From Azospirillum sp. 51_20 (GTDB lineage Bacteria; Pseudomonadota; Alphaproteobacteria; RF32; CAG-239), in contig MNTV01000026.1 of assembly GCA_001917175.1 (NCBI GenBank), positions 817 to 64,816 on the forward strand: a stretch of 64,000 nt of DNA, in the 5' to 3' direction. Below the pieces are notes generated by a model. It did not search any database, was not told the origin of the DNA, and worked only from the letters and a program-made list of their open reading frames with translations. Of this stretch, positions 11,331 through 58,968 are shown piece by piece. The first letter of the stretch is position 1; each line of letters begins with the position of its first letter. Made by a program: the position numbers and the translations under genes.

Positions 11331-11630
11331 TTACCGACGGTCGGTTTCACCTAACGTGCGGACAATGCCGGAACAGGTTTCGTACAAGGTGGAATTTTTG
11401 TCCCAGCCGTCGTTTTCATCAATATGAATTTCCAGCAGTTTGTCAACTTCCATCATCACATAGGCCATGTCCAGGGAATCGGCGCCCAAATCATCGCGCC
11501 AACAGGCGTCAAGCACAACGTCCTTCTCCTCGCATCCCACTTCTCTGACGATCACGCTTCTGATTTTGTCAAGCACGGTTTGAGCCTCTTCTCTGCTGAC
11601 CGCGGATTTTTTTGCATTACAGTTTTCCAT
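11331..11630 (-). CDS. acyl-carrier-protein-like protein (paralogue B)
   Basis: DLGADSLDMAYVMMEVDKLLEIHID. Shares GWDK...T.....C..IVR with paralogue A. Confidence 0.6.
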   Translation of the reverse strand: MENCNAKKSAVSREEAQTVLDKIRSVIVREVGCEEKDVVLDACWRDDLGADSLDMAYVMMEVDKLLEIHIDENDGWDKNSTLYETCSGIVRTLGETDRR

Positions 11631-11814
11631 AAAATTATATGATAAAAAATTATTTTCCCGTCAGATATAGCATGCCGGCCGCTTTTTGTCAACCCGGAAC
11701 CTCATTTTTCCGCTTAGACCGCCACTGAAAAAGGCGGCAAAAAGAATTTGCGTTTCGCCTTTTTTTGTGCTACTTTGGACAAAAATATCATATTAATGCA
11801 AACGGATTGCAACC

Positions 11815-13458
11815 ATGTCTGACCTGCAGAAAAATTTAACCGCGGCCGGAGCCTCTGCCGAATCGGCCGAAAAAATCGCCGGCATAATCAAAGCGGCGGC
11901 CCAAGCCGCCGCCCTCACCCCCGTTGAGCTTAACCGCTGTCTCCGCATCGGTGCGGACGAAGCCAGACGCATTTATTACTGGGAAAAGAAACATGCCCCG
12001 CTGCTGCCGGCCGGCGGCGGCGAACGGCTGAAAGAAATAAAAAAACTTTTTACCGACAGAGGCCTTGCCGCAGACGATGAACGTTTCAAACACATTTTGC
12101 TTGAAGCGCCGTCGCTTCTGTTTCTGCCGGCATCGACAATTGAAGACAACATCAAAAGCCTCTGCCGCTTTCCCGGACTGCCGGCAATCGACGAGGAAAC
12201 ATACCGCCGGGCGGCCCTGAAACAGCCGCGGCTGCTTTGTCTGCGGCCGCAGACGATTGCGGACAACATCCGCGGACTGGTCAATCACCCCGCACTTTGC
12301 GGACGCGAAGGCAAACCGCTGCTCAAATGCCGGGAATACATCGCGGCGGCCCTCAAACGCCCGCAGCTGCTTTACCAGTTGCCGGAAACGCTGGCTGCCA
12401 ACGTCAGCGGCGTCGTCAGCCATCCGGCGCTGAAAGACGATGACGGCAAACCGCTGTTTACAACGGAAACCTATCTGCAAACGGCGCTGAAAAAACCGCA
12501 GTTGTTTTTACACGCGCCGGAAACCGTGGTCGAACATGTTACGCGCTTTCTCCGGCATCCAGCCTTCGCCGACGAAAACGGCAACAGTCTGATCAAAGCC
12601 GGCGACTACCGCAAGGCGGTTCTCCGACACCCGGCGCTGCTGTTGCAAAATCCCGACCTGGCCGCCGCCAACATCAGCGGCGTCGTCAATCATCCGCTGC
12701 TGGCCGCCGCGGACGGCAGCCCCCTGACAAGCCGTGCCGAATATGTCAGGGCGGCTCTGAAACAGGCTTCGCTGTTTATCATTACGCCGGACACCGTGGT
12801 CGGAAAAATAAACGGCATCATCCGCCACCCGGATCTCAGCGGTACAGACGGCCGTCCCGTCATTGACAAGGCCGCCTGTCTGAAAGCGGCGCTGAAAATG
12901 CCGGCGCTGTTCGTCATTTTGCCGGAAACGATCGCCGCCAACGTCAACGGCGTCGTTCGTCATCCGGCACTGCAAAACGAACAGGGACAGCCGATGTTCA
13001 AACGCGAAGACTACATAAGAGCCGCGATCAGACAGCCCTCGCTGCTGGTACAGGCGCCGCAGACAGTAGCCGAACACGTAACAATCATCAAAGACCTGCT
13101 GCTTAAGGAGGAAATCTGCCCCGATACGGCGGCGGTCGCCGATTTCTGCCTGACCAACCCGATTACCATGGTGCTTGGCAGCGACAACCTGAAATCCCGC
13201 TATCTGTATGCTTACGCCAAGCGCCGCCGCGGGGAAAAGCCGGGCAAAAAAATCATTGCCGATACCAAGGGTAAAATGCGCGATTATCTGGCGCAAAGCG
13301 ACTTTTCCGCAGATTTGCCGGAACGCGACTATGAACGACTTTACCGGCGGCACCGGATCGTCGTTGCGGACGGACGGGCAAACGTGCTTGCGCCGCGGAC
13401 GGCTTCCGTTTACGGTATTGATATTATCCGCAGCCTCAGGGCGGGAAAAGAAAAATAA
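11815..13458 (+). CDS. tandem 45-residue helical-repeat protein (no family recognised)
   Basis: 547-aa ORF. Six consecutive 45-aa units of the form HPAL-x4-G-x-P-x7-Y-x2-AALK-x-P-x-LL-x3-PET-x-A-x-NV-x-GVV, preceded by two shorter degenerate units. Confidence 0.75.
   Translation: MSDLQKNLTAAGASAESAEKIAGIIKAAAQAAALTPVELNRCLRIGADEARRIYYWEKKHAPLLPAGGGERLKEIKKLFTDRGLAADDERFKHILLEAPSLLFLPASTIEDNIKSLCRFPGLPAIDEETYRRAALKQPRLLCLRPQTIADNIRGLVNHPALCGREGKPLLKCREYIAAALKRPQLLYQLPETLAANVSGVVSHPALKDDDGKPLFTTETYLQTALKKPQLFLHAPETVVEHVTRFLRHPAFADENGNSLIKAGDYRKAVLRHPALLLQNPDLAAANISGVVNHPLLAAADGSPLTSRAEYVRAALKQASLFIITPDTVVGKINGIIRHPDLSGTDGRPVIDKAACLKAALKMPALFVILPETIAANVNGVVRHPALQNEQGQPMFKREDYIRAAIRQPSLLVQAPQTVAEHVTIIKDLLLKEEICPDTAAVADFCLTNPITMVLGSDNLKSRYLYAYAKRRRGEKPGKKIIADTKGKMRDYLAQSDFSADLPERDYERLYRRHRIVVADGRANVLAPRTASVYGIDIIRSLRAGKEK
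12286..13095 (+). repeat. 6 x 135-nt (45-codon) in-frame tandem repeat array, diverged
   Basis: Units begin HPALCGREG, HPALKDDDG, HPAFADENG, HPLLAAADG, HPDLSGTDG and HPALQNEQG at exact 45-codon spacing, starting at residue 158. Confidence 0.85.
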
Positions 13459-20476: not shown

Positions 20477-20591
20477 TCTTCTGTCCTTTCTTTTTTGTTT
20501 TAAGCACACAGATTTTGTGAGCAAAAAACCCACATTCCATTATAGAATGCAGGTTAATTGAAAAAATTTAAGATAGTATTAAGATTAAATA

Positions 20592-24772: not shown

Positions 24773-24942
24773 TTATGGAGAGGTGACTGTCCGGTTCGTA
24801 ATTCCGCAGATCTTCCGAGCCAACGTAATTTTATCGGGAATTGTCCCTGGCAGGATCGTGGTCCTGTTATATGATGCCCACCTATTGAGATGCGGTTCGA
24901 GACAGAATGTACCTATACGGCCCGACGGTTCTCTCTTTTTTT
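24773..24942 (+). ncRNA. ssrS: 6S RNA candidate
   Basis: Lies directly downstream of zapA, the conserved proteobacterial position. TATAAT at 24761-24766. Closing helix GGAGAGG/CTCTCT plus CTGTCCGG/CCGACGG. CCGAGCCAACGUAAUUUUAUC resembles E. coli CUGAGCCGAUAUUUCAUAC. Ends in a T-run. Confidence 0.55.
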
Positions 24943-27410: not shown

Positions 27411-27790
27411 GCGGCCGGTCAAGAAATTCCCGAACCGGGCATTTGCTGCCGGAAACGGTTAATGCTGCCTGCGGGAACCGGCGGAAGTTTATTTCCGCCC
27501 GGACTTCAAAACCTGTTCGCCCTTTCAAGGGGGAAAAATCTTTTCGCACCGGCCGGCAACCGGTTTACGTAACTCCCGAACCGGGCATTTGCTGCCGGAA
27601 ACGGTTAATGCCGCCTGCGGGAACCGGCGGAAGTTTATTTTTGCCCGACTTTTAAACCTGTTCGGCCTCTCAAGGTGGCAAAATCTTTCCGCACCGGCCG
27701 GCAACCGGTTTACGTAACTCCCGAACCGGGCATTTGCTGCCGGAAACGGTTAATGCTGCCTGCGGGAACCGGCAACCGGTTTATTGCGCC
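27411..27790. repeat. 145-146-bp tandem repeat, about 2.6 copies
   Basis: The cccgaaccgggcatttgctgccggaaacggttaatgc motif recurs at 27429, 27575 and 27720. Copies are over 90% identical. The last copy overlaps the stop codon of the J-domain gene. Confidence 0.9.
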
Positions 27791-28938
27791 GCAACGATTT
27801 TGCTTTCTTCCGGTATCGGATTACCGCGGCCTTTTTCCAACTCAGATTCCCGGACAAAGCCCATTTCGCCGTTGTCAAGCATGATCCGGTACCATTTTTT
27901 GTCCGGCGTAAATCCGGTAACGCGAACGGTATGTCCTTTTTCCGTCGTCGTCATCACATCAAACTTGTCGCCCGGCCCGTACATCACTTTGCCTTCGCCG
28001 GTCAGGTGATAGAGCATTTTTTCGTCATAGACGTCGACGGGAATGTCAAAGATTTTGGAAACCACCACGTCGTCAAAAGTTTCTCCGCCGTCGTTGAACG
28101 TCACTTTCTGGAAATAGGTGATTTCATGCTGCTTGGTCATATATTGCCGGAATCCGCCGAAAACGGAATTGACGACCGGAGAAAGCAAAATCATGACCAG
28201 CACGAACGGCACCAACAGATGCGCCGTTTTCAAACGCAGCCAGCGCCAGCGGGGCAACGGCGGAATTTTGCAGTTCAGCCGGGCGATAAAGCGCTCAACC
28301 AGCGGCCGCTGTTCCGGCAAAGCATATTCCAGCGCCTGCGCGGCGGAATACGCCGCCTGACGATCCTTGTTTTCCTGATGATAGGCCAGCGCATTGTGCA
28401 GCAAAAGAGTCAGGTTGTCCTGCCGGTTGCTTCCGGTTTTGCGAAAATTTGCGGCAATCGCACGGCAGTTGGCGGCAAAGGCCTTAATTCCCCACCAACC
28501 GGCCAGCCAGTTGACAAGAGAACATTTCAGAATTTCGTTAAAAGCCTGTTTTTCGCTGCAAATCAGGCGTTCTTCCCGATCGGTGCATTTGATCAGCCTG
28601 CCGGTCACGTAACGCAGGTCAAACACCCGCACGTCGGGATTTTCCGCTTCCATCCGGTCTTTGAAAATGCTCAGCGCATCCATCTGCGGAAAATCGTCCT
28701 TCCCGTAGACACAGGCCAGCAAATCGTAGGTCAGGCGCTTTTCCTCATCCTGCAAAACGTCATAAGCCACCGAAATTTTCTGGAAATGCTCCATCGCGTT
28801 TTCCGCCTTATTGTAGTCGGGGTGCCATTCTTTGGCGCGGTCGCGGTAGCTCAGCTTGATCGTCCGCGCGTCGGCGTCGGGCGAAACTTCCAAAACCTGA
28901 TAGTATTCCAACGGGTCACGATTGTACATTTTTTTCAT
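27781..28938 (-). CDS. J-domain (DnaJ-like) membrane protein with C-terminal SH3-like domain
   Basis: J-domain YYQVLEVSPDADARTIKLSYRDRAKEWHPDYNK (HPD present). Hydrophobic segment LLVPFVLVMILLSPVVNSVF. C-terminal GHTVRVTGFTPDKKWYRIMLDNGEMGFV. Start ambiguous (ATG 28938 or 28929) and overlaps the flhG stop. Confidence 0.8.
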   Translation of the reverse strand: MKKMYNRDPLEYYQVLEVSPDADARTIKLSYRDRAKEWHPDYNKAENAMEHFQKISVAYDVLQDEEKRLTYDLLACVYGKDDFPQMDALSIFKDRMEAENPDVRVFDLRYVTGRLIKCTDREERLICSEKQAFNEILKCSLVNWLAGWWGIKAFAANCRAIAANFRKTGSNRQDNLTLLLHNALAYHQENKDRQAAYSAAQALEYALPEQRPLVERFIARLNCKIPPLPRWRWLRLKTAHLLVPFVLVMILLSPVVNSVFGGFRQYMTKQHEITYFQKVTFNDGGETFDDVVVSKIFDIPVDVYDEKMLYHLTGEGKVMYGPGDKFDVMTTTEKGHTVRVTGFTPDKKWYRIMLDNGEMGFVRESELEKGRGNPIPEESKIVAAQ

Positions 28939-29725
28939 CCTGTAAAATTTTTCTTGCAATTTCGATTACGTCCGCGGCCGCCTCCGAAGTCGGATAACGG
29001 CTGATGAGCGGCATCTGGTTGCGGATGGCATCGCGTACGCGCGCATCGCGGCGAACAATCCCTAAAAGCGGCGGCGAGATTTTGAGAAAAGTCTGGCAGG
29101 CCTTTTGCAGAATATCATAGGTCTGACGGCCTTCGCGCAGAGTGTCCGCCTGGTTGACCACGATCTCCAACCGGCATTTCGGGTACTGCATGGCCATCAG
29201 TTTGACAAAGGCATAGGCGTCGGTCAGGGCCGTCGGTTCGTCGGTGCAGACCACGATCACCCGTCCCGACATGCCCGACAAAATACGGATGGATTTTTCC
29301 ACCCCTGCCCCCATGTCGAGAATCACCTTGTCGTACGCGCCGGACAAAAGCGCCAGGTCTTCGGCCAGAATCTGCAAACGGCCGACCGGCATCGAAGCCA
29401 GCCCGGCCGAGCCCGAACGTCCGGCAATGACGTCAAAACGGCATTTGTCACAATAGTGAACCACCTGGTTTAAGGTGGTGGTTCCGGTAACCACGCTGCC
29501 CAGATCAAACGGCACCATCAGCCCCAGCTGAACATCGATGTTGGCCATACCCAGATCGCCGTCGAACAACAGGGTTTTCTGCCGCAGACCGCTCAAAGCA
29601 TGCGCCAGAGTGATCGAAAACCAGGTTTTGCCGACCCCGCCCTTGCCCGAGGCGACCGCAATCATCCGATCGGCTTCAAACCGCCGCGGACTGCAGATTC
29701 CCGCCGTCAAGTCTTCTTCCCGCAT
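28916..29725 (-). CDS. flhG: MinD/ParA-type ATPase FlhG (YlxH/FleN)
   Basis: Deviant Walker A IAVASGKGGVGKTWFSITLA and LLFDGDLGMANIDVQLG. Located directly after flhF. Confidence 0.85.
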   Translation of the reverse strand: MREEDLTAGICSPRRFEADRMIAVASGKGGVGKTWFSITLAHALSGLRQKTLLFDGDLGMANIDVQLGLMVPFDLGSVVTGTTTLNQVVHYCDKCRFDVIAGRSGSAGLASMPVGRLQILAEDLALLSGAYDKVILDMGAGVEKSIRILSGMSGRVIVVCTDEPTALTDAYAFVKLMAMQYPKCRLEIVVNQADTLREGRQTYDILQKACQTFLKISPPLLGIVRRDARVRDAIRNQMPLISRYPTSEAAADVIEIARKILQDEKNVQS

Positions 29726-29743: not shown

Positions 29744-30688
29744 TCATGCCAGCAGCAACCGGGCAAGCGAAGGCCCGTCAAATTCCGACAGCCCGTTTGC
29801 CATGCTGGCGGAAACCGAAGCCCGTCCGAGCTTGAAACCGCCTTTAAGCGCTGCCGTCAGCACCCCGCCGATCCGCCGGCAGAGGTCGAGTTTGGTCGGC
29901 AGCAGGCAGTCCGCACCGAGCGAAGCAAACAACGCCGCCGCTTCGCCGGCGTCACAGGCATTGTATCCGGCGTCAAGAGTCAGCACCGTTTCGCCGCCGG
30001 CCGCTTTCAGCAGGGCGGACAGGCGTTCGCGCTCGGAATCGAGAAAAGGATTGGTGCCCGGCGTGTCAACCAGCACCAAACGGCCTTTTTCCGCACCGGC
30101 TACCGCCGCCGACAGCTGCTCCGGTTCCCGTGCGGCCAGAAAATCCGCCGACAAAACGGCCGCCAGGGACTTCAACTGAGCATTGGCGCCGGCACGCACG
30201 CCGTCGGCGCTGATCAGCGTGCAGGCAATGCCTTTACGGCAGGCAAGCGCCGCGGTTTTGACCAAAGCGGCGGTTTTGCCGCTGCCCTGAAGACCGGCAA
30301 ACACCTTCACCGGATTTTTCCGATCCAAAAGATCATAAGCGGCAAACAAACGGTTGAAAACCGCGGTTAAAATCCGCACGTCGTCCTTCTCCCCGCCGGC
30401 CGCCGCCTCTTCCCGGCACAGCGCCAGCAGTCTTGCCCGCACCGCCGCGTCAGCTTCGTGATAGTCCAGCCGTTCGCGGATCAGGTTGTCGCTGTAAGCC
30501 GCCGCGTAAACCGCAGGTTCGGCACCGTCCGCAAATTCGATTTCGTCGGTTTCCACCGCAGCCACCAGTTCGCTGCGGCCGTCTTCGCTCTGCGAGGTGG
30601 AAACGATTACCGCTTCCGGCCCCAGTTCTTCTTTCACCCGCCGCATCAGACGGATCATGTCTTCGTCAACGAATTTTTTTATCCGCAT
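29744..30688 (-). CDS. flhF: flagellar biosynthesis GTPase FlhF (short form)
   Basis: N-terminus MRIKKFVDEDMIRLMRRVKEELGPEAVIVST. SRP-type G motifs GLQGSGKT, DTPG and TKLD. Confidence 0.8.
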   Translation of the reverse strand: MRIKKFVDEDMIRLMRRVKEELGPEAVIVSTSQSEDGRSELVAAVETDEIEFADGAEPAVYAAAYSDNLIRERLDYHEADAAVRARLLALCREEAAAGGEKDDVRILTAVFNRLFAAYDLLDRKNPVKVFAGLQGSGKTAALVKTAALACRKGIACTLISADGVRAGANAQLKSLAAVLSADFLAAREPEQLSAAVAGAEKGRLVLVDTPGTNPFLDSERERLSALLKAAGGETVLTLDAGYNACDAGEAAALFASLGADCLLPTKLDLCRRIGGVLTAALKGGFKLGRASVSASMANGLSEFDGPSLARLLLA

Positions 30689-30939
30689 GCGTTTTCCTCT
30701 TCCAAAACTTTTGTCACGGCAATGCCCAGCCGGCCGTTTTCGACCATCAGTTCGCCTTTGGCCACCACGCTGCCGTTGACGCAGACGTCAACTTCGTCGT
30801 TCACCCCGCGGTCCAGCTCCAGCACCGCGCCTTCTTCCAGTGCCAGCAGCTGCCCGATGGTAAGACGGGTCTGCCCCAGCACCACCGTCACTTCCACCGG
30901 CACGTTTGACAACGGTTCCAGTTTTTCCCGATCAGTCAT
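30679..30939 (-). CDS. fliN: flagellar motor switch protein FliN
   Basis: SpoA domain: VPVEVTVVLGQTRLTIGQLLALEEGAVLELDRGVNDEVDVCVNGSVVAKGELMVENGRLGIAVTKV. Confidence 0.85.
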   Translation of the reverse strand: MTDREKLEPLSNVPVEVTVVLGQTRLTIGQLLALEEGAVLELDRGVNDEVDVCVNGSVVAKGELMVENGRLGIAVTKVLEEENACG

Positions 30940-31462
30940 TTTTCTCTCCCGTCAGCATTGCTTCCAGCCGGCGGATTTTTTCCCCGCCGCAAAACGCGGT
31001 TTCGCCCTGCTGCCAGCAGATCCGGCAATCCGCCGGCGCCAGCGTTTCGTCCTCATGCAGCAGGATGCGGCCGGCAAAACCGTCGGCGGCAGCCGTTTCC
31101 GCCAGAAACGGACGAACAACGGCAAGCGTCCGCGGATGGAAATAAAAATCGAGCGCCTTTTTCTCGCCGAGACGGGGGAAATTGTCGGCAATAAAACGGC
31201 TGACCACCGCCAAAGCATTTTGTTCCAAAAGCGCCGGAGAAAGTTCCCGCAGGATCATCCGGATCAGGCGCAGGTTGTCATTTTTCTTCCCGTCCAGCAG
31301 CAAATCCAGCCGCGCCCGGACGTTTTCCAAAACTTCCGCCGTTTCCGCCGACGACGTTTTTTCCGCCGCCGGAAACGACCGGCGGTTGACCGCAAGATCC
31401 AGTACCGCCGCGCTGCCGTCCGCAATTACGAAATTGTCAAACTCATAGGGCCGGCGGCTCAT
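30932..31462 (-). CDS. FliH/FlbE-like flagellar assembly protein (weak call)
   Basis: Its position between the fliF/G gene and fliN matches the alphaproteobacterial fliF-fliG-flbE-fliN order. The C-terminal LAPADCRICWQQGE resembles the FliH C-terminus. Confidence 0.45.
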   Translation of the reverse strand: MSRRPYEFDNFVIADGSAAVLDLAVNRRSFPAAEKTSSAETAEVLENVRARLDLLLDGKKNDNLRLIRMILRELSPALLEQNALAVVSRFIADNFPRLGEKKALDFYFHPRTLAVVRPFLAETAAADGFAGRILLHEDETLAPADCRICWQQGETAFCGGEKIRRLEAMLTGEKND

Positions 31463-32844
31463 CAGACGCGTCCCCCGTTCATTTTCCGCAGGCGGATTTT
31501 GCCGACGGCCGCCAGCCGGGCGGCCTGTTCGATGATTTCATCCTGCGCGGCTTCCACTTCTTTCAGCTTAACCGGACCGAGCGCGGCCATTTCTTTCCGT
31601 ATAAAAGCAGCGGCTTCCGGCGACATGTCGGCAAAAAAGCGCTGTTTCAGCCGTTCCGAAGCTCCGCGAAGCGCCACCGCCAGCCGTTCGGCTTCCACTT
31701 CGTCAAACAGACGGCGGATATCATCGTCGCTTACCGCGTTAAAATCTTCAAAATTAAACATTGTTGCCCGCAGCCGGCCGGCCAGCACCGGATCTTCCGT
31801 TTCCAGCACCGACAAAAGCTCCCGGCGACGTTCTCCCCCCGCGGCGGCAAACAGGGCAAAAGCACGTTCGCGCCCGTTGGGAACGCTTTGGGCAAAATCG
31901 CGCGACAGGGTTCGTTCAATCTCCGCGGCAATTTCCGGCACCACCGGCGCGGAAACCGCCATCGCCGCCAGCACGCCGGCAGCGAAGGGAAGCGGCAGCC
32001 CGTTCAGCACCGTTTCCGCCGTCGGCCGGTTCAGCCGCAGCAGCACATAGGCCGCAACCGACGGACTTTCGCCCGACAGGTAGGCCGCCAGCGCTTCGGC
32101 ATCGGTATTTTCAAGCGTTTTCCAGACAGTGTTTTTTCCGCCGTCTTCCTGCCGGCGCCGGCGGCCGCGGAAAAAGTTCAGCCCCCACACCGCCAGCCCG
32201 GCGAGAGCGGCGGCCAGCAGCAGCGGAACAATCTGTCCCTTGCCTGCAAACGAAACGTTTTCGATTTGCAGAATGTCGCCCCGCCGCGGTTCAAAACCGA
32301 TAACCGGCGCTACCATCGACGCCAACCGCACGGCTTCGCCGTCCCGGCAGACGCCGTCGGGACAAAGGCCGTCAACCAGCACCAGCGCGGACAACCGTTT
32401 GCCGCGCCCGCCGCTTTTTACCACGCGGCGGCTGTATCTGCTGATCTCATATTCGGCTTCGCTGGCGAAATTGGCCGCCGCCGTATAAGCGCGCAGCACC
32501 TGTCCGTCGGGATCAAAAATTTCTTCGCCGGAACTGACGGTGTCATAATCGATTTCAAGCCGCACTTCCGCCCGCACTTTTCCTTCGCCGACAAACGGTT
32601 CCAACACGCTGACGATGCGGCGGGCAAGATAAGCCTCTTCGGTGCGGCGGACGGCTTCGCGGCCGTTTTCCGCGGCTGTTGCCGGCATCTGCGGCCGGCT
32701 GAGCGCCAACAGCACCGCCACCACCGCCAGCCCGGCGGCAAAACTGACGGCTGCCGCCAGCAGCCCCTGCCCGAGCGGGCAGTTTGTTTCAGAACGTTGC
32801 AATTTTTCCACCTGATTTTTCAATTTTCTTCCCTGTTTAAGCAA
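31462..32844 (-). CDS. FliF(minimal)-FliG fusion protein
   Basis: The N-terminal half has TM1, FliF RBM3-like blocks (IVSVLEPFVGEGKVRAEVRLEIDYD; GFEPRRGDILQIENVSF) and TM2. The C-terminal half is FliG middle plus C domains (MFNFEDF; ALRGASERLKQRFFADMSPEAAAFIRKEMAALGPVKLKEVEAAQ). TTG start assumed. Confidence 0.7.
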   Translation of the reverse strand: MLKQGRKLKNQVEKLQRSETNCPLGQGLLAAAVSFAAGLAVVAVLLALSRPQMPATAAENGREAVRRTEEAYLARRIVSVLEPFVGEGKVRAEVRLEIDYDTVSSGEEIFDPDGQVLRAYTAAANFASEAEYEISRYSRRVVKSGGRGKRLSALVLVDGLCPDGVCRDGEAVRLASMVAPVIGFEPRRGDILQIENVSFAGKGQIVPLLLAAALAGLAVWGLNFFRGRRRRQEDGGKNTVWKTLENTDAEALAAYLSGESPSVAAYVLLRLNRPTAETVLNGLPLPFAAGVLAAMAVSAPVVPEIAAEIERTLSRDFAQSVPNGRERAFALFAAAGGERRRELLSVLETEDPVLAGRLRATMFNFEDFNAVSDDDIRRLFDEVEAERLAVALRGASERLKQRFFADMSPEAAAFIRKEMAALGPVKLKEVEAAQDEIIEQAARLAAVGKIRLRKMNGGRV

Positions 32845-32881
32845 AATAGCCTTTTCCGGCCGATTGTTAAAAGCAAATTCT

Positions 32882-43609: not shown

Positions 43610-46228
43610 TTAACGACTTTCTATCTCTTTTTGCATCTTAGCAAGCTGCCTTAGTTCCCTACGGCTAAGATTTTGAGCTTCTGGAGAATTCGGATTCAGC
43701 TTCTGAGCTGCCTGAGCCCCTTCAAGTCCCGGACGTTTGCCGGACTGGGTAGTGGCGCCGACAGTATACTTTTCTTCTTTCTGTACGGAACGGGTAATGA
43801 CTTCATCACCGCCGCGGTCGCCGTCCCCTTCCAGCTCCAGACGAATGTCGGAACCGCTGTTTTCTTCCGTGATAATAGTGGCGGGAATCGGTTTTTGCGG
43901 TTCAATCGGCTCAACGATTTTTCTTTCCTCGCCGCCTTTGACTTCTTCATACATAACCCGTTTGTCATCCGGACAATTGGTACCTTCACCGATAACGCGG
44001 ATCCGGCGGGTCATGGTCAGGGTACCATCTTCATCAACCGGCAATCCTTTGTAACCGGCGCCGGCTACGGCGAAGAATTTATCCGCATCCATCCGGCCGT
44101 CAGCTCTGCCGGCTTCGTTTAAGGTACAGATGTCAAGCGTTTTGCGGGCGGTTTCCATCTGCTCGGCCGTCAGCTGATCGCCGCAGCCCAGCAGATGGTA
44201 AATGTCTTCCAACTGCTTGCCAAGGGAACCGGTGCCGATGGTACCGAACTCTCCGCTCTTAACCGAAGTGATCGCCGCCAGACGGGAGAACTTGAACAGT
44301 ACCTGTTCAGCCGTCATCGGGTTGTCGGAGTCAACGCTCAACTCGGCCGCATAGTGGGCGGCATGTGAATAAAAACGATCCATACCGGCGCCGTCGGTGG
44401 TATCCAGTTTATCATACCAGCTTTTCAGGGTTTCAAACTGACGACGGCTGATGCCCATGTTTTCGTTCCATTGTTCGGGGAAATCCTTCATTTCAAAATC
44501 ATCAACGACAGACGTCTGTTCGGTTTGAACCTCTGCTTCCCGGTTGTCGGCCTGCGCTACCCGGATATCGGCGTCACTCTGTTCCCGCGCATCGGTAAGA
44601 TTTTCACCTTGCAGCGTCTTTCGAACATTGAGCGTATCGGTTTGCGCTTTTTGAACGGTAATACTGTCCGTCTGTTGCTCTAATGTTTCCGAATGCGGAT
44701 CAGTCAGCGTATCTGACCGGGTTTCGCCGGCATGAGCGTCACTGCAGGCCTCGGCCACAAACATGGTTACCGCGGCGCCGAGAGCAGACATTCCCAGACT
44801 CTTCCATTCTCTTTTGCGTTCTTCGGCGTCTTTGGCCGTTGCTACGCCGACGATATTGCTGGTTACTGACCCGGCAATCGTTACCGCGCGTTTGGCCATT
44901 TTCTGTGCGGCCAGTTGTTTGGCAACTTCCGCCGCCGTCTGAGTTGCCACGTCGGCACCGACCGAAGCCGCCGTGCCGGCAATGCCCCAGCTGACGGCCG
45001 CCGCACCGACCGAAAACACCGCTTTGGTCAAAAACTTGCCATTGGTATAAATTTCTTTGTAGCTTTTGTCCGGGTGTTCCTTTTTCTGCTTATACGCTTC
45101 GTAGATAACCCGGCGGCCGACGGTATAGGCGGCATACGCGGCGCCGCCGACCAGCGCGGCCGTTCCGCCGGTGGCGACCGTTGCGGCAAAACCGGCGGCG
45201 GCAACCATGTCGGCCCCGATTTCATATTTATTTTTATAGATGTTTTTGGCAACGCTCAGGGCAATTTCGTATTTGTTTTCCCAAACGTGTTTGCAGCCTT
45301 CGTTGAAAGCGACGATGCCGTCCGACATCTTTTTGTTGCAGCTTTCAAAAACCTTGTTGGCGCCGGCTCTCGCCTTCTGCCACTGATTGCGCAACGTTTT
45401 GCCCTGATCTTTCAGCTTGGCAAAACCCCGATTGATTCGGTCGGCGATTTTTTTGACATTGTTTTTATACTCGGCCAGCCGCTCTTCCGCCTGAGCCGAC
45501 ACTTTGGCGCAATAGCCGATGGCGCCTTCGACGCCGATCGACAGTTTTTCCGCGCCCGATTTGCCGATATTGGCAATCTTTTCCTTTATTTCCTTGGTTC
45601 GGGCGGAAAGCAGAATTTTTGCCTCTTCGTCGGCCTTTTTTCTGTCGCCGGAATATTTCTTGTCCATTTCCCGGTTGATTTTGGTCGTTTCGGCAACAAG
45701 AAAGCTCTGCAAAAGCGCCAAATCGATTTTTTCGTTCAGGGTTTCCCGGTAAACGGCTTTTTTGGCTTCCGCATCAGCCGCGTTCATAAACTTTTTGGCC
45801 GCCGGAGATTCCGGGCTGCTGGCGCCGCGGAGCTCGCTGTCGGCTTCCAGCTTGGCCGCGGCAACGATCTGCGCGATCATTTTGTCACGCTCTTTGCCTT
45901 CCACGGCTTTGCTTACTTCTTTACCGTTTTCGCTGACGGTCTGATACAGTTCGACTTTTTCCAGCCGTTTGCGGGTATCGGCAAAAGCCGGATCTTTTTC
46001 GTCCAGAGGATCGGTTGCCGCACTCAGTTCCTCCACCGCTTTGGCCGACGTCGCCAAACCGGTATACAGACTCATATCCAGCTTTACTTTGGTTTCGATG
46101 TGCTGAAGCAGCCTGGCAAATTCGGCGCCGTACTCTTTTTGTCCGTTTAAGGCGTCGTAGAGCTCGTCGGCATCGTTAAAATTGCCGTTTCTGATCAATT
46201 CCGCTGCTTGCTTTGCATTCATTGCCAT
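43610..46228 (-). CDS. large hypothetical protein: coiled-coil N-terminal region, Gly/Ala-rich membrane core, soluble C-terminal region
   Basis: Start at ATG 46228 (GAGGAG 7 nt upstream). Four hydrophobic G/A-rich segments (ADMVAAAGFAATVATGGTAALVGGAAYAAY; AVFSVGAAAVSWGIAGTAASVGA; AVTIAGSVTSNIVGVA; LGMSALGAAVTMFVAEA). No family recognised. Confidence 0.8.
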   Translation of the reverse strand: MAMNAKQAAELIRNGNFNDADELYDALNGQKEYGAEFARLLQHIETKVKLDMSLYTGLATSAKAVEELSAATDPLDEKDPAFADTRKRLEKVELYQTVSENGKEVSKAVEGKERDKMIAQIVAAAKLEADSELRGASSPESPAAKKFMNAADAEAKKAVYRETLNEKIDLALLQSFLVAETTKINREMDKKYSGDRKKADEEAKILLSARTKEIKEKIANIGKSGAEKLSIGVEGAIGYCAKVSAQAEERLAEYKNNVKKIADRINRGFAKLKDQGKTLRNQWQKARAGANKVFESCNKKMSDGIVAFNEGCKHVWENKYEIALSVAKNIYKNKYEIGADMVAAAGFAATVATGGTAALVGGAAYAAYTVGRRVIYEAYKQKKEHPDKSYKEIYTNGKFLTKAVFSVGAAAVSWGIAGTAASVGADVATQTAAEVAKQLAAQKMAKRAVTIAGSVTSNIVGVATAKDAEERKREWKSLGMSALGAAVTMFVAEACSDAHAGETRSDTLTDPHSETLEQQTDSITVQKAQTDTLNVRKTLQGENLTDAREQSDADIRVAQADNREAEVQTEQTSVVDDFEMKDFPEQWNENMGISRRQFETLKSWYDKLDTTDGAGMDRFYSHAAHYAAELSVDSDNPMTAEQVLFKFSRLAAITSVKSGEFGTIGTGSLGKQLEDIYHLLGCGDQLTAEQMETARKTLDICTLNEAGRADGRMDADKFFAVAGAGYKGLPVDEDGTLTMTRRIRVIGEGTNCPDDKRVMYEEVKGGEERKIVEPIEPQKPIPATIITEENSGSDIRLELEGDGDRGGDEVITRSVQKEEKYTVGATTQSGKRPGLEGAQAAQKLNPNSPEAQNLSRRELRQLAKMQKEIESR

Positions 46229-46370
46229 GAGTTTTCTCCTCAAAATCCCCATATTCTACATATTTGCCTGCACTATACCACAGAAAGTATGTGCAGGCAA
46301 GTATTTTTTGTCAATTTTTGTATTCTTTTACAAATTTTTAATAATCGGCATGATGAATTTTCAAACCCTT

Positions 46371-47963
46371 TTATTGCAGAGTCTGTCCTTTTTTCTCTTT
46401 CATGGCTTCCAAGACCGCCGGATCCATTTCCCGTTTTTTCGGGAAAGCCTTCTCCATGGCGGCGTTAATGTTGACCTTTTCTTCTTCCGTCCGCTCGCCG
46501 TAAGGTTTGGTTTCGACAACAAAAGAGCCACCGTTTTCCGGCTTGCGTTTAATGCTGTCAACACCATAACGCTGCAATGCGGTTTCATAAAGCGCCTGCT
46601 TGTCCTTGTCTCCGTCATATTCAGCTTCAACATATTTCATCATAAGGATCTTCGCCTTCAGCGCATCTTCCTTGTCACCTTCCAACACACCGCTTTTCAA
46701 CTCTTCTTCTTTCTTTCTCAGACTATTTTCAAATTCATCCGTATCATCTCTGGAATCTAAGTCAAGGTCCCTCGAGTAACGCCCCAAACATGACTGAACC
46801 ACATTACTTTTTACGGAATAGGATGTCTCTTTTTCCTGTTTTTCTTCTTTTTTCTCTTCCGTCTTTTCTTCTTTCGGCACAAAACCGTTATAGACTGCGC
46901 GGTCTTCCTCGCTTAAGTTCTGGATTTCGACCCCGCCTTTGGCACAGGCTTCGATCAGCGCGGCCTTGAATTCCGGCGTCATGGTCGGACCGAGCTTGAT
47001 ATCCTGTCCGTTTTCTTTGGCCAGAGCGATAATTTCCTTAAAATGATCAGCATTGGGCTTTTCGCCTTCCGGCGTTTTGACCGACAGTTTGTCCTTGTCG
47101 GCATAATGAACCTCGGTACCGTTTTTGAACTTGCCTTTCAAACCGGCCGGACGCTCGCCGTTCTCATCGGCCTCGTTATCGCGGGTCCACTCGTTGCCGT
47201 TTTCCTGACCGTATCTGGTTAAGGCCGCGTCATATTTCCTGACCCAGTCGGGATCTTCATTTTCCGCCGTGCGCGGACCGTTGCCGTCCGCTCCGTCGAC
47301 TTCAATGGCAGAACCGTCGCCGGCCGCCGCAGTGCCGTCGTTGCCTTCCCCCGTATCCTGCCGATCGTCGTTGCCGTCCTTTTCCAGCTCTTTATGCCGC
47401 TTTTCCAGCTTTTCAAAATCTGCTTCGCTGACTTTACCGTCTGCAATCTTTATTTCCAGATCTTTAAACTTTTCCTCATCATAATAGCCGGGAAGATCGA
47501 CCATGTGGTCATTTTCGTTGTCCGCGGCGGCGCTGCCGGCCGGAACATTATCTTCAACTTCCGGTTGCTTTTTGTCTTCGCTCATTTGTTCCTCCTGTGA
47601 CGATATTCCCAAATAATCTTTCAAACTTCCGGGTTTAACATACAATTCCCGGTAAATGGCATCATTAAACTCCACATCTTTCAAAACGCCGTGCAGTTTC
47701 CGCTGTTTGAGTTCGGCCTGCAGCATGTTCTGTACTTTCTTCTGTCCTTTGGCAGTCGCGTTCAGATAGTGCGGTATTTTATCGTTGCGGAGCATTTCCC
47801 CGATTCTGGCAAAGCCATCGCCTTCGCCTTTCTGCGAAGCCGCACGTTCCAAATTCACCCTGACGCCGGCCATATAGTTCTGATAAGGTCTAGAAACCTT
47901 GACTTTGTCAACGACCTCAAGCAGCGCGTCCGTTTCTTCGGTTGTCAGATTGACTTCGGCCAT
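46371..47963 (-). CDS. large acidic hypothetical protein
   Basis: Start at ATG 47963 (AAAGAGG upstream). 530 aa, rich in D/E/K with low-complexity acidic stretches. No signal peptide and no family recognised. Confidence 0.8.
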   Translation of the reverse strand: MAEVNLTTEETDALLEVVDKVKVSRPYQNYMAGVRVNLERAASQKGEGDGFARIGEMLRNDKIPHYLNATAKGQKKVQNMLQAELKQRKLHGVLKDVEFNDAIYRELYVKPGSLKDYLGISSQEEQMSEDKKQPEVEDNVPAGSAAADNENDHMVDLPGYYDEEKFKDLEIKIADGKVSEADFEKLEKRHKELEKDGNDDRQDTGEGNDGTAAAGDGSAIEVDGADGNGPRTAENEDPDWVRKYDAALTRYGQENGNEWTRDNEADENGERPAGLKGKFKNGTEVHYADKDKLSVKTPEGEKPNADHFKEIIALAKENGQDIKLGPTMTPEFKAALIEACAKGGVEIQNLSEEDRAVYNGFVPKEEKTEEKKEEKQEKETSYSVKSNVVQSCLGRYSRDLDLDSRDDTDEFENSLRKKEEELKSGVLEGDKEDALKAKILMMKYVEAEYDGDKDKQALYETALQRYGVDSIKRKPENGGSFVVETKPYGERTEEEKVNINAAMEKAFPKKREMDPAVLEAMKEKKGQTLQ

Positions 47964-48053
47964 TGTCAGCACCTCTTTGTTGTTTGCTTATATCGGCAAG
48001 ATAACACAAAAAAACGTTTTTGTCCACTTTTTTGTTAAATATCAATTGCGATT

Positions 48054-49077: not shown

Positions 49078-51141
49078 TTATGCAACTTCGGATGAGGCTG
49101 CGGCTCTTCTTTTTTCTGCCATCTTCTCTTCGTCGCAGAAGGGGCAGTATTTGTGTTCTCCGGAAATGTAACCGTGCTTGGGGCAAACGGAAAAAGTCGG
49201 AGTGATGGTAATGTACGGTAAACGGTAGTTGGTCAGCACGCGTTTGACAATGTCGCGGCAAACCTTGGCCGAAGACACACGCTGCCCCATATAGAGGTGC
49301 AGCACCGTGCCGCCGGTATATTTCGACTGCAGATCGGCCTGCAGCTCCAACGCCTCGAACGGATCGTCGGTAAAGCCGACCGGCAGCTGCGAAGAGTTGG
49401 TATAATAGGGGTTCTCGCTTGTACCCGCCTGAATGATGCCGACAAAGCGCTTTTTGTCTTCGCGGGCAAAGCGGTAGGTGGCGCTTTCCGCCGGAGTGGC
49501 CTCAAGGTTGTACATATGGCCGGTTTCTTCCTGGATTTTGACCAGACGCGCACGGATGTAGTCCAAGAACTTTTCGGCAAAGGCGCGGCCCCATTCGTCG
49601 GTGATGTCATGCTTGCCGTCGGTGAAGTTCAGGATCATCTCGTTGATGCCGTTGACGCCGATGGTCGAAAAATGGTTGCGGAGCGTGCCGAGGTAGCGTT
49701 TGGTGTAGGGGAACAAACCGTTGTCGATCAGACGCTGAATCAGCTTGCGCTTGAGTTCCAGCGAAGTGCGGGCAATGTTCATCAGTTCGTCGACGCGGGC
49801 AAACAGGCCGGCTTCGTTGTTTTTGTAAACAAAGCCCAGACGCGCACAGTTGAAAGTGACGACGCCGATCGACCCCGTCTGCTCGGCCGAACCGAACAGG
49901 CCGTTGCCTTTGGCCAGCAGTTCGCGCAGATCAAGCTGCAGACGGCAGCACATGGAACGAATCTGTCCCGGCTTCAGGGTCGAGTTGATAAAGTTCTGGA
50001 AATAAGGCAAACCGTATTTGGCCGTCATTTCAAACAACAATTCGGTGTTCTCGTCTTCCCAGGGGAAATCCGGCGTCATGTTGTAAGTCGGAATCGGGAA
50101 AGTAAACGGCCGCCCCTTGATGTCGCCTTTCATCATGACATTGATGTAGGCTTTGTTGATCATGTCCATTTCCGGCTTGAGGTCGCCGTAGGTAAACGGC
50201 TGTTCGACGCCGGCGATCAGCGGATGCTTGTCGCGCAGATCTTCCGGGCATACCCAGTCAAAGGTAAAGTTGGTAAACGGCGTCTGCGATCCCCAGCGGG
50301 AAGGAACGTTCAGGTTGTAAATCAGTTCCTGAAAGGCCTGTTCAACCTGTTCATAGCTCAGATTGTCCGCCCGGATGTAGGGCGCCAGGTAGGTGTCGAC
50401 CGAAGAAAAAGCCTGTGCGCCGGCCCACTCGTTTTGCAGCGTGCCCATAAAATTGACCATCTGGCCGACAGCTGCCGACAGGTGTTTGGCCGGGCCGGCC
50501 TCGGCTTTGCCGGGAACGCCGTTGAAACCTTCGTGCAATAGGTTTTTCAACGACCAGCCGGCGCAATAGGCGGCCAGCATGTCCAAATCGTGAATGTGAA
50601 TGTCGCCGTTGCGGTGGGCTTCTCCGACTTCCGCCGGATAAACGTGGCTCAGCCAGTAGTTAGCGGTAACTTTGCCGGCGACGTTTAAGATCAAACCGCC
50701 GTTGGAATAACCCTGGTTGGCGTTGGCATTGACGCGCCAGTCCAGTTTTTCCAGATATTCGTTGATCGAACTTTCAACGTCGACCATCACCTTTTTTTCG
50801 CCGCGCAGGCGATGGCGCTGCTCGCGGTAAAGAATATAAGCCTTGGCGGTGGTGAAATAGTTGGCGGAAATCAGCACCTGTTCGACCACGTCCTGAATGC
50901 ATTCGATCGTCGGCAGGGTTTCCGTAAATTTGTGTTCCAGCACTTTCAGAACCTGAGCCGTCAGCAGATAGCTCTCCTGTTCGCCGAACTCGCCGGTTGA
51001 TTCACCCGCTTTGCGGATGGCGTTGTAAATTTTGTCGCTGTCAAACGGAACCATGGTGCCGTCCCGTTTGATCACATTGGCGATTTTGGTCTCCTTGGCT
51101 TTGGAAACGCTGTACTTTTCTTCGGACATCGCTTTTGACAT
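49078..51141 (-). CDS. nrdD: anaerobic ribonucleoside-triphosphate reductase, large piece lacking the glycyl-radical tail
   Basis: ATP-cone VIKRDGTMVPFDSDKIYNAIRKA. Catalytic core motifs. Ends right after the zinc-ribbon region SVCPKHGYISGEHKYCPFCDEE. Confidence 0.93.
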   Translation of the reverse strand: MSKAMSEEKYSVSKAKETKIANVIKRDGTMVPFDSDKIYNAIRKAGESTGEFGEQESYLLTAQVLKVLEHKFTETLPTIECIQDVVEQVLISANYFTTAKAYILYREQRHRLRGEKKVMVDVESSINEYLEKLDWRVNANANQGYSNGGLILNVAGKVTANYWLSHVYPAEVGEAHRNGDIHIHDLDMLAAYCAGWSLKNLLHEGFNGVPGKAEAGPAKHLSAAVGQMVNFMGTLQNEWAGAQAFSSVDTYLAPYIRADNLSYEQVEQAFQELIYNLNVPSRWGSQTPFTNFTFDWVCPEDLRDKHPLIAGVEQPFTYGDLKPEMDMINKAYINVMMKGDIKGRPFTFPIPTYNMTPDFPWEDENTELLFEMTAKYGLPYFQNFINSTLKPGQIRSMCCRLQLDLRELLAKGNGLFGSAEQTGSIGVVTFNCARLGFVYKNNEAGLFARVDELMNIARTSLELKRKLIQRLIDNGLFPYTKRYLGTLRNHFSTIGVNGINEMILNFTDGKHDITDEWGRAFAEKFLDYIRARLVKIQEETGHMYNLEATPAESATYRFAREDKKRFVGIIQAGTSENPYYTNSSQLPVGFTDDPFEALELQADLQSKYTGGTVLHLYMGQRVSSAKVCRDIVKRVLTNYRLPYITITPTFSVCPKHGYISGEHKYCPFCDEEKMAEKRRAAASSEVA

Positions 51142-56700: not shown

Positions 56701-57429
56701 TTTTTATTATACACTAACGACAAGGAAATTCATCAACGGCCGGTTCATCAACGGTTTTCGGGAAAAACAACGTGGCAGAAGACAATCAGGAAATCAAAAG
56801 TTCAAAATTTTACCGCTTTCTCAAAAAAATCGGTTTAATTTATTTGAGAATATCGCAAGTTATTCTGATTTTAGGCCTTTTGCTGGTGTTGTACGGAATG
56901 TTTGTTTTTGAACCGCAGCACCAATAAAAGAAAGCAAACTTCATGTCTGAAAACAAAACAAACAAAAGCCGGATATGGGAAGAATTCAAAATCTGCTGCA
57001 AATGGACCTTTAATGCCGCGGCAATAATAATAGTTACCGCCGCCATAGTCGGCGGCTTTATTTTATCCTTATAAACAACGGACAAACGCGGAAGAGTTCC
57101 GCCGGCACATATTTTCGGCAGCTTCGGAGACCGGCTTCGCGCAAAAAGCCGGGCAACAAATTTTTACCGGCAGGCACAGGCATTTGAAACATAAATTTCT
57201 GCCGGTTGACGCAGGGAGTCCAAACTCAAACGCCCGGCAGAGCATCCTCTGTTCGACAAGATATGCGACAAAACACAAAGCGTATCTGCCCCGAAACATA
57301 AATTTTCATTCGCCGGAAAGAGCGGCGATGACCGTTTCAAACCGCAAAAGCCCGGCTTCAATACTCCGCGAATTTACCGGACGGGTCGAGATGTCCGCAT
57401 TCATCCGCCGGACCGGGCGCCTAAAGCAT

Positions 57430-57460
57430 AAAAAAAGGGAGATGAAAATCTCCCTTTTTT
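57430..57460. terminator. bidirectional rho-independent terminator (ends tig)
   Basis: A-run, gggagat-gaaa-atctccc, then a T-run. Confidence 0.7.
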
Positions 57461-57486
57461 ATTTTATCGTTGCTGCAAGACGCCGA

Positions 57487-58848: not shown

Positions 58849-58883
58849 TTTCTTCTCTGTCATAAAATGTTGAAACCAATGTC

Positions 58884-58968
58884 TGGTGCGGGCGAAGGGA
58901 CTTGAACCCCCACGACTTGCGTCATCAGAACCTAAATCTGACGTGTCTGCCAGTTCCACCACGCCCGC
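58884..58968 (-). tRNA. tRNA-Leu (anticodon UAG), class II with long variable arm, CCA encoded
   Basis: Minus-strand sequence GCGGGCG-TG-GTG..CAC-G-TCAGA-TTTAGGT-TCTGA-TGACGCAAGTCGTG-GGGGG-TTCAAGT-CCCTT-CGCCCGC-A-CCA folds as a cloverleaf. Confidence 0.85.

Follow-up and report, generated by a model that had tools for sequence, protein, structure and literature searches.

The window analyzed here is a stretch of 64,000 nucleotides from the gut alphaproteobacterium Azospirillum sp. 51_20 (lineage RF32; contig MNTV01000026.1 of assembly GCA_001917175.1), and its subject is a gene on the minus strand, 31462..32844, in which the flagellar base proteins FliF and FliG are joined into one chain (fliF'-'fliG). 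The open reading frame (ORF) runs unbroken for 460 codons from a TTG at 32844 to the stop codon at 31462-31464. Translation more likely begins at the in-frame TTG at 32802, which would give a protein of 446 aa (MQRSETN...), since an AGGTGG Shine-Dalgarno sequence lies 5 nt before this codon and the homolog P0001 begins there with the same MQRSETN; residue numbers below nevertheless refer to the 460-aa version. An earlier note, made from the letters of this DNA, had described the ORF as a single uninterrupted frame that fuses a minimal FliF to a FliG without its N-domain, with ring-building motifs (RBM) 1 and 2, the FliF C-tail and FliG-N all missing. Apart from the likely later start, our analysis bears this description out: the gene encodes a covalent minimal FliF, reduced to two transmembrane (TM) helices around RBM3, followed by the middle (FliG-M) and C-terminal (FliG-C) domains of FliG.

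From the N terminus onward, all on the minus strand, the chain comprises a short K/R-rich cytoplasmic segment, TM1 (residues 25-48, 32701..32772), the periplasmic FliF RBM3 with a shortened beta-collar (residues 57-197, 32254..32676), TM2 (residues 206-231, 32152..32229), a short basic linker (RGRRRRQEDGGKN), FliG-M (residues 238-320, 31885..32133) and FliG-C (residues 324-452, 31489..31875). The ORF, its homologs, Pfam, NCBIfam, an AlphaFold2 model and Foldseek together define this architecture: TM1 is placed by the model helix and the sequence, TM2 by the model, RBM3 by profiles, alignment, model and Foldseek, and FliG-C by Pfam, alignment, Foldseek and residue comparison. The profile searches that the earlier note had suggested give significant matches in both halves. 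YscJ_FliF_C (PF08345) matches with E=1.1e-16 and 62 bits in two stretches, the best at 129-199 (gathering score (GA), Pfam's curated cut-off, 23.8), FliG_M (PF14841) at residues 250-319 with E=4.2e-11 and 43.3 bits (GA 25), and FliG_C (PF01706) at residues 347-452 with E=3.5e-33 and 114.5 bits (GA 23.3). YscJ_FliF (PF01514), the Pfam model of RBM1-2, does not match the fusion protein (E=1e-59 for the FliF of the canonical relative L026, for comparison), and the sole match to FliG_N (PF14842) is sub-threshold (19.6 bits, GA 25) and falls inside FliG-C. Among the NCBIfam models, fliG (TIGR00207) aligns residues 242-451 with profile positions 113-327 of 338 (112.9 bits, cut-off 226.7) and fliF (TIGR00206) aligns residues 67-114 with positions 242-290 (29.9 bits, cut-off 129.75), so that the protein misses both equivalog cut-offs by a wide margin.

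Structure prediction, likewise proposed in the earlier note, leads to the same pair of proteins. The AlphaFold2 model, built on the family alignment, has a mean predicted local distance difference test score of 66, with helices at 25-48 and 206-231, an RBM3-type alpha-beta...beta-alpha-beta fold at 57-197 and helical FliG-M and FliG-C at 238-446. The two TM helices bracket the periplasmic region, with basic residues on their cytoplasmic sides in model and sequence. The central hairpin of the modeled RBM3 is of low confidence, which fits the expectation that the beta-collar becomes ordered only within a ring. In the Protein Data Bank, Foldseek returned FliG structures, full-length and MC-domain (3hjl, 1lkv), with E values of about 1e-12, and FliF S-ring/RBM3 structures (8z5v, 6scn, 6sd1) with E values of about 1e-7; the FliG-C part (1qc7) gave TM-scores of 0.88-0.96. 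Aligned with the FliF of L026 and of E. coli, the fusion differs by three in-frame deletions, which remove RBM1-2, the variable RBM3 collar loop and the cytoplasmic C-tail. Its FliG part begins at the end of the helix linking the N and M domains (T-V-W-K-T-L vs T-M-W-D-K-L), at about residue 105 of the E. coli protein; TM2 is separated from FliG-M by ~17 residues, and the C-tail, which binds FliG-N in canonical FliF, is gone. The MFNFEDF hinge and the LAVALRGASE block of FliG-C are almost invariant across the fusion family.

The fusion is the first gene of a tight minus-strand cluster, with overlaps between several starts and stops. The start of the next gene, orf176 (30932..31462), overlaps the fusion stop, and it is followed by a short FliN of 86 aa that consists of the SpoA/FliMN_C domain only (30679..30939; 119 aa in canonical relatives), by the signal recognition particle (SRP)-type GTPase FlhF (314 aa, 29744..30688, Pfam SRP54), by the MinD/ParA-type ATPase FlhG (269 aa, 28916..29725, Pfam CbiA/ParA) and, as the final gene, by a membrane J-protein with a DnaJ domain, a TM segment and a C-terminal SH3 domain (27781..28959), all on the same strand. 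orf176 has no Pfam match of its own, and a sequence profile search of the Protein Data Bank returned no FliH match; it matches the FliH of L026 with E=8e-19 and 42% identity in the C-part, and that protein in turn matches PF02108 with E=9e-6. We therefore regard orf176 as a probable truncated FliH, a positional ortholog assigned transitively through the Pfam-supported FliH of the relative. Judged by their motifs, the partner enzymes look active: FlhF retains G1 GSGKT, G3 DTPG and G4 TKLD as well as the conserved N terminus MRIKKFVDEDM..., FlhG the deviant Walker A SGKGGVGKT, and the J-domain its HPD motif. In the 37-nt gap after the upstream hydrolase gene, a sigma70-like promoter match (TTAACA, 16 nt, TATTTT) lies on the minus strand at 32843..32870, a match to the consensus only. 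No CtrA box (TTAA-N7-TTAA) was found upstream of the operon, the lone match in the window, at 20568, being at chance level. Terminator counts in the window were not above shuffled expectation; the operon ends are therefore drawn from gene packing only.

Upstream the cluster is flanked by the hydrolase, a GT4 glycosyltransferase and threonyl-tRNA synthetase (ThrRS), downstream by YmdB, ZapA, 6S RNA, EF-P and L31, and the rest of the window is housekeeping (NrdD, ComEC, RF3, CysRS, GluRS). Searches with tblastn, using 39 E. coli flagellar, motility and chemotaxis proteins and the proteins of a canonical relative, gave no further match in the window or within ~10 kb on each side of 17 loci of the fusion lineage. 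Within this scope there is no FlhA, FlhB, FliPQR, FliI, FliM, rod, hook, filament or MotAB, no match to the flbD-like activator or the orf542 of the canonical cluster described below, and, in the flanks inspected, no gene with PF01514 only. In a search of 5.8 billion proteins with the FlhA of a canonical relative, the 120 matches listed were all at least 88% identical FlhAs from canonical gut relatives (e.g. Azospirillum sp. 47_25), which filled the listing before a diverged FlhA of the fusion lineage could show.

Because canonical fliF and fliG are adjacent, a sequencing or assembly error that shifts the frame could in principle join them. We give this explanation next to no weight, since an error of this kind does not account for the replacement of the ~880 codons of canonical fliF and fliG by 446-460 through three discrete in-frame deletions, and since the same structure recurs in independent assemblies. 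The fusion is found in 14 homolog clusters (45-98% identity, 419-473 aa, the same three Pfam domains) and in 11 GTDB species representatives, all of them uncultured gut Alphaproteobacteria labeled 'uncultured Azospirillum sp.' or 'uncultured Alphaproteobacteria bacterium'; the intact operon lies on 4/4 long contigs inspected (224-232 kb, from different studies), and 7,514 blocks of the assembly collection contain the exact FliN sequence of the window. The misassembly check and the survey of related genomes that the earlier note had called for both come out in favor of a genuine gene.

This gene is also maintained by selection. By the Nei-Gojobori method, with the window compared to four relatives, the ratio of nonsynonymous to synonymous substitution rates (dN/dS) is 0.18-0.27 for the whole fusion, 0.06-0.26 for RBM3, 0.11-0.21 for FliG-M and 0.10-0.22 for FliG-C; free evolution is confined to the fast-changing TM2-linker segment. 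Among the operon partners FlhG is the most constrained (0.008-0.067), followed by FlhF (0.06-0.18), FliN (0.24-0.34) and orf176 (0.10-0.35), with ThrRS at about 0.03 as a comparison gene. These values, together with the common architecture of the 14 clusters and the recurrence of the operon on the long contigs, identify the fusion as real and under selective maintenance. The locus might still be read as a decaying, functionless remnant of a flagellar locus, as erosion is visible in the truncation or loss of FliH, in the shortened FliN (absent in L098) and in the fast-evolving linker. We consider such decay very improbable: the ORF is intact among members that are only 45% identical, RBM3 and FliG-C are more constrained than the protein as a whole, the gene is complete on all four long contigs with the species' FliN spread over thousands of collection blocks, and, as described below, three clades have converged on the same gene set.

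The likely source of the cluster can be traced. The cluster of canonical gut relatives, among them L026 ('uncultured Azospirillum sp. UMGS63') and a dozen more, reads fliF-fliG-fliH-fliN-flbD-flhA-flhF-flhG-orf542-dnaJ; the Caulobacter fliF operon is another example of the arrangement up to flhG. In L026, fliF encodes 540 aa (PF01514 and PF08345), fliG 340 aa (N, M and C), fliH 253 aa, fliN 119 aa, the FlbD-like sigma54 activator 440 aa and flhA 707 aa. The window lineage shares this gene order minus the activator, flhA and orf542; FliF and FliG are shortened and fused, FliH is trimmed to 176 aa and FliN to 86 aa. Identity between the window and L026 is 34% for the FliF and FliG parts, 42% for the FliH C-part, 44% for FliN, 39% for FlhF and 77% for FlhG. 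Gene order and identities are what reductive evolution of the alphaproteobacterial cluster fliF-fliG-fliH-fliN-flbD-flhA-flhF-flhG would leave behind, and we think it somewhat probable that the fusion arose in this way.

The fate of FliH fits such trimming. orf176 aligns end to end with the FliH of the relatives; its C-terminal domain and the FxFDNF peptide at its N terminus are both present, and ~80 residues of linker and coiled coil are missing. In five sublineages FliH is reduced to an N-terminal peptide of ~30 residues (about YEFDNF...AVLDLSINR) that is fused in frame to the SpoA domain of FliN (L002 7504-7965; L009 598-924; L008 about 11413-11736; L010 11386-11805; L005 11236-11514). Because these five sublineages retain nothing else of the protein, the part of FliH that binds FliI is dispensable in the fusion lineage. 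The peptide itself could, speculatively, be a FliN-binding or an EIDAL-like FlhG-binding element. As an observation in its own right, FliH-peptide-FliN is a second natural fusion of the module. A further observation concerns the J-protein, which directly follows flhG in the reduced lineage and is conserved in canonical gut lineages too (45% identity between them). There a 542-aa gene without a Pfam match separates it from flhG (region L026 9361-12161), a gene that the fusion lineage has lost. We know of no flagellar role for either protein, and the J-protein is probably not a core component, as it is absent from the other reduced modules.

We next consider the FliG residues that contact FliM and the stator, comparing 191 canonical FliGs with 16 members of the window family in verified E. 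coli numbering. Q128 and R160 are each kept in 187/191 canonical proteins but in 0/16 of the family (A for R160 in the window protein), and R281 in 183/191 but again in none of the family, which has E, D or A instead. Position 288 is acidic in 183/191 canonical FliGs vs 2/16 in the family, with K in 12/16, and position 289 is acidic in 183/191 vs 10/16. Other charges persist: K264, mostly K in canonical proteins, is R in the family, and R297, mostly R, is K or R. In the window protein, FliG-M reads ESPS where EHPQ is expected, and of the charges facing the stator K264->R, D289->E and R297->K keep their type, while R281->E and D288->K do not. The E/K/E reading for E. coli R281/D288/D289 and the degenerate EHPQ motif, both noted earlier, thus stand. 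The interpretation of 'two charge reversals' as a conserved compensatory pattern does not: the variation of position 281 among E, D and A across the family argues for relaxed constraint and not for a compensated salt bridge. By these comparisons, the whole family has lost both the EHPQR signature that binds FliM and the core of the torque helix.

RBM3-only fusions are not unique to the window lineage; they occur in other alphaproteobacterial clades and in Desulfomonilia, as a profile search of 1.84 billion representative proteins followed by Pfam scans revealed. Two RBM3-only builds can be told apart. Type A (RBM3, FliG-M and FliG-C) comprises the window family, P0020, P0021, P0022, P0025, P0029, P0036 and P0040; type B, which also contains FliG-N, comprises P0023, P0053, P0058, P0109 and P0110 (576-648 aa) and occurs in Alphaproteobacteria of animal guts (loci L093, L097, L098), followed by (FliN)-FlhF-FlhG. 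P0022 and P0025 branch off deep in the window lineage and share its ThrRS-GT4 synteny. The fusions P0021 and P0029 (both type A) and P0053 (type B) each precede FliN-FlhF-FlhG, and P0109 (type B) precedes FlhF-FlhG only; likewise, in loci L090, L092, L097 and L098 an RBM3-only fusion is followed by FliN-FlhF-FlhG or FlhF-FlhG amid housekeeping genes, with FliN absent in L098. Overall, the fusions are genomically tied to FlhF and FlhG and usually to FliN, and the nine fusion contexts examined all lie among housekeeping genes, with flhA, fliI, fliPQR, rod, hook or mot genes present in 0/9.

We reject a single fusion event as the source of all these modules, because FliG-MC neighbor analysis, synteny and the FlhG tree each indicate more than one origin. 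In neighbor-joining trees of FlhG, which carry no support values, the window lineage forms one clade that is sister to canonical gut relatives, the P0021 module falls in the midst of canonical Rhodospirillales-like lineages, and the modules of P0029, P0053 and P0109 group elsewhere, beside other canonical lineages; FliG-MC distances agree with this picture. At least three independent reductions are therefore a well-supported inference, if not a proof. In the group of P0029, P0053 and P0109, a pseudouridine synthase gene lies immediately upstream of each fusion, and this synteny shared by types A and B suggests that FliG-N was lost after the fusion had made it redundant, with type B as an intermediate stage.

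Other members of the survey depart from this pattern. P0115 (757 aa) joins full-length FliF (RBM1-3) to FliG-M and FliG-C and is a candidate natural analog of the Salmonella deletion-fusion, and P0074 (887 aa) is a candidate fusion of full FliF with full FliG; for both, read-through or assembly error is possible. P0036 (L094 5738-7396), annotated 'FliG' in a metagenome-assembled genome of Desulfomonilia, and the syntenic P0040 (L100 3187-4842) are ~550 aa long and keep all residues that contact FliM and the stator. A large tetratricopeptide repeat protein is encoded on one side of them and an MgtE_N-like protein of 172-200 aa on the other, and in L094 a sigma54 activator gene lies upstream. 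They represent a different orphan module, in another phylum and far from flagellar genes. The survey also turned up P0027 (996 aa), which combines a FliM domain, five DUF4116 repeats, FliG_M and two FliG_C domains, and P0084 and P0132, in which FliG_C is duplicated. Finally, P0315, from the cluster of P0009, is an 86-aa fragment of the fusion family on an ENA contig of 1,784,432 bp, which indicates that a near-complete single-contig genome of the fusion lineage is available in ENA.

What, then, does the fusion do? We hold it slightly more probable than otherwise that it is a flagellum-derived membrane ring or scaffold associated with FlhF and FlhG, left by reduction of the canonical cluster, and not a rotor. 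This reading builds on established facts: the architecture is conserved and under purifying selection, genes have been lost locally, the FliM and stator contacts are gone, and the module recurs. They make the MS-ring and rotor function implied in the earlier note a poor fit: flhA and flbD are lost, FliH and FliN are truncated, and Q128, R160, R281 and D288 are gone. Most likely, the remaining module no longer builds a secreting, rotating flagellum, and other flagellar genes are presumably absent genome-wide.

A number of points weigh against this reading. Our flagellar screen covered the 64 kb of the window plus about 20 kb of flanks per locus; the FliH C-domain is under purifying selection in the window species (dN/dS 0.10-0.19), hinting that FliI or a similar partner survives; no part of the fusion is as well conserved as FliG-C, which retains the charge type of K264, D289 and R297, so that a stator-like partner is possible; and ring formation by RBM3 without RBM2 is an assumption. 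The P0021 module adjoins a gene of the FlaF family, which regulates flagellin, and most of its FliG contact residues are intact, so its lineage at least might still be flagellated. In Campylobacter jejuni, moreover, the division phenotype on which we draw below needed FliM and not FliG (PMC3228812), and FliM was not seen at the fusion loci.

Several of these points would suit a working rotor of a streamlined flagellum, in which the fusion serves as MS-ring and FliG, the other genes including flhA lie elsewhere in the genome, RBM1-2 is dispensable or supplied in trans by an SctJ-like protein, and changes in MotA match the charges of the torque helix. The strong conservation of FliG-C with its three retained charges, the selection on the FliH C-domain and the FlaF-family gene beside P0021 all speak for such a rotor, as do FlhF and FlhG, the classic flagellar placement factors. 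A laboratory precedent exists in Salmonella: deletion-fusions from which the FliF C-tail and FliG-N have been removed still support motility (cited in PMC4768692). We nonetheless regard a rotor as unlikely. The export apparatus gene flhA and the class-II activator gene flbD no longer occupy their ancestral place in this lineage or in at least two further clades, for which repeated loss is favored because repeated relocation is much less parsimonious. RBM1-2, which forms the inner M-ring housing the export gate, is missing, with no PF01514-only gene in the flanks to supply it. The FliM contacts Q128/R160 and the stator contacts R281/D288 are lost throughout the family without a compensatory pattern at position 281, five sublineages reduce FliH to a peptide, and flagellar, mot and che genes were found neither in the 64 kb nor in any flank.

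In the scaffold account, deletions removed RBM1-2, the collar loop and the C-tail of FliF along with FliG-N, making the joint between FliF and FliG covalent, and further deletions took flbD, flhA, part of fliH and the N terminus of fliN, leaving the fusion, a FliH remnant, FliN, FlhF and FlhG. For the resulting scaffold we infer a mechanism in which every step, including ring formation, the interactions with FlhF and FlhG and the cellular role, goes beyond the observations. GTP-bound FlhF would mark a membrane site, probably the pole, and bind FliG-M/C of the fusion; binding of FlhF-GTP to FliG, probably by way of the M and C domains, has been described (PMC12713375). RBM3 domains would oligomerize into an S-ring-like ring that the two TM helices anchor in the inner membrane, and FliG-M/C would form a second ring, at a 1:1 ratio, on a tether that holds it some 20 residues beneath the membrane. 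FliN would dock underneath, along with the N-terminal peptide of FliH, and the MinD-like ATPase FlhG would cycle on this platform, so that the assembly could act as a positional landmark or regulatory scaffold. Control of the division site or of polarity seems the most plausible output by analogy with C. jejuni, where FlhG, with FlhF, FliF, FliM and FliN, restrains polar division independently of the export apparatus, T3SS (type III secretion system), sigma54 and rod genes not being needed (PMC3228812, Balaban & Hendrixson 2011). A more far-reaching version, which we put forward tentatively and with less than even confidence, is that the module is a self-contained, flagellum-independent organizer resembling the MS/C-ring, in which a ring of the fusion and FliN is positioned by FlhF and read by FlhG, and which evolved convergently, by reduction, in at least three gut-associated alphaproteobacterial clades to control polarity or division instead of motility or secretion. 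Such an organizer would amount to an exaptation of the flagellar base, in uncultured Alphaproteobacteria that rank among the most prevalent of the human gut.

Alternatively, the ring may be an adaptor for another machine such as a T3SS, pili or another polar organelle, serving as a base or docking site that FlhF and FlhG put in place. The same has been proposed for the chlamydial FliF-FliG fusion and its injectisome (Bergeron 2016, PMC4768692), FliN is homologous to SctQ, and residual FliH function would suit a machine that contains an ATPase. However, genes for secretion systems, pili or ATPases are absent from the window and from the nine fusion contexts examined, and without RBM1-2 there is no ring to hold an export gate, which makes an adaptor role improbable to our minds, more so than a rotor.

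If the scaffold reading is correct, the fusion would be the smallest MS-ring/FliG unit still maintained by evolution, and thereby a test of how much of FliF and FliG is enough to build a ring and to be recognized by FlhF and FlhG. Roles of the flagellar base and of FlhF/FlhG beyond motility would become testable without confounding by motility or secretion. The module would also represent a recurrent end-state of flagellar loss, opposite to the pattern in endosymbionts and with FliG-N lost convergently after the link between FliF and FliG has turned covalent. Since databases name these proteins 'hypothetical protein' or 'FliG', censuses of flagellar genes in gut metagenomes would misread them.

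Elsewhere in the window, a 6S (SsrS) RNA gene lies on the plus strand at 24781-24935 (Rfam, 63.4 bits) and adjoins a ZapA homolog that was identified in the collinear loci L083-L086; 6S RNA stands beside ZapA in many proteobacteria. The sole tRNA gene in the 64 kb is a tRNA-Leu (58884-58968, minus strand). Four large ORFs are without a Pfam match: 43610-46252 (880 aa) and 46371-47972 (533 aa) on the minus strand, and 57184-58905 (573 aa) and 11815-13458 (547 aa) on the plus strand. AT skew is strongly negative (-0.24 to -0.29) at 44-48 kb, around the 880- and 533-aa ORFs, and similar at 18-22 kb. An anaerobic ribonucleotide reductase NrdD with an ATP-cone (49078-51141, minus strand) is consistent with an anaerobic gut lifestyle.

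Finally, we would like to place the fusion in the context of known systems. Our literature searches brought up neither an RBM3-only FliF fused to FliG-M/C nor the FlhF/FlhG/FliN module or FliH-peptide-FliN fusions; those for natural minimal fusions or relic modules returned only engineered FliFG constructs and the Chlamydia case, and those for flagella or motility in the gut lineage (RF32) nothing useful. The canonical alphaproteobacterial cluster represented by L026 is the direct evolutionary source and has the same gene order, but in it FliF and FliG are two full-length proteins, FliH and FliN are complete, the sigma54 activator and FlhA are present, and FliG keeps EHPQR and the torque-helix charges. 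Insect endosymbionts such as Buchnera resemble the window lineage in keeping a subset of flagellar genes after motility was lost, yet the retained set is the opposite one: their export apparatus and basal body remain, and the genes for filament, motor and placement are lost. The C. jejuni division control involves nearly the set of proteins kept at the window locus (FlhG, FlhF, FliF and FliN). There, however, the proteins belong to working flagella, and FliM is required and FliG is not, whereas at the window locus FliM was not seen and FliG is fused.

The closest likenesses are other covalent links between FliF and FliG. Engineered Salmonella and Vibrio fusions (PMC4768692; PMC10941966; PMC11481574) also hold the two proteins at 1:1, and in Vibrio both FliG and a covalent FliF-FliG fusion promote MS-ring formation, which is efficient with the fusion (PMC10941966). 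The Salmonella deletion-fusion also drops the FliF C-tail and FliG-N and thus shares the junction logic of the window fusion, but the engineered proteins keep RBM1-3 within a complete flagellum, whereas the window fusion lacks RBM1-2 and the collar loop at a locus without flhA. The earlier note's statement that no natural minimal fusion had been characterized proved too strong, as one of ~330 aa has been published for Chlamydiaceae (Bergeron 2016, PeerJ, PMC4768692). That fusion, too, is a natural single chain of a shortened two-TM FliF and FliG, in hosts that are considered non-flagellated and keep few flagellar genes. It is built differently: by the published description (PMC4768692) the chlamydial protein has RBM2 and an RBM-like domain, no RBM3/SpoIIIAG-like domain and FliG-M only, an architecture that the window protein, with RBM3 only and FliG-M plus FliG-C, does not share. 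The partner genes differ as well, FliF, FliL and FlhA being listed for Chlamydia (PMC4768692) vs FliN, FlhF and FlhG at the window locus. FliI is reportedly another partner in Chlamydia (Stone et al. 2010, cited in Bergeron 2016). The two fusions belong to different phyla and are therefore of independent origin. The concept of a natural FliF-FliG fusion is hence already known from Chlamydiaceae; the RBM3-only build with FliG-M/C and the module that accompanies it appear to be new.

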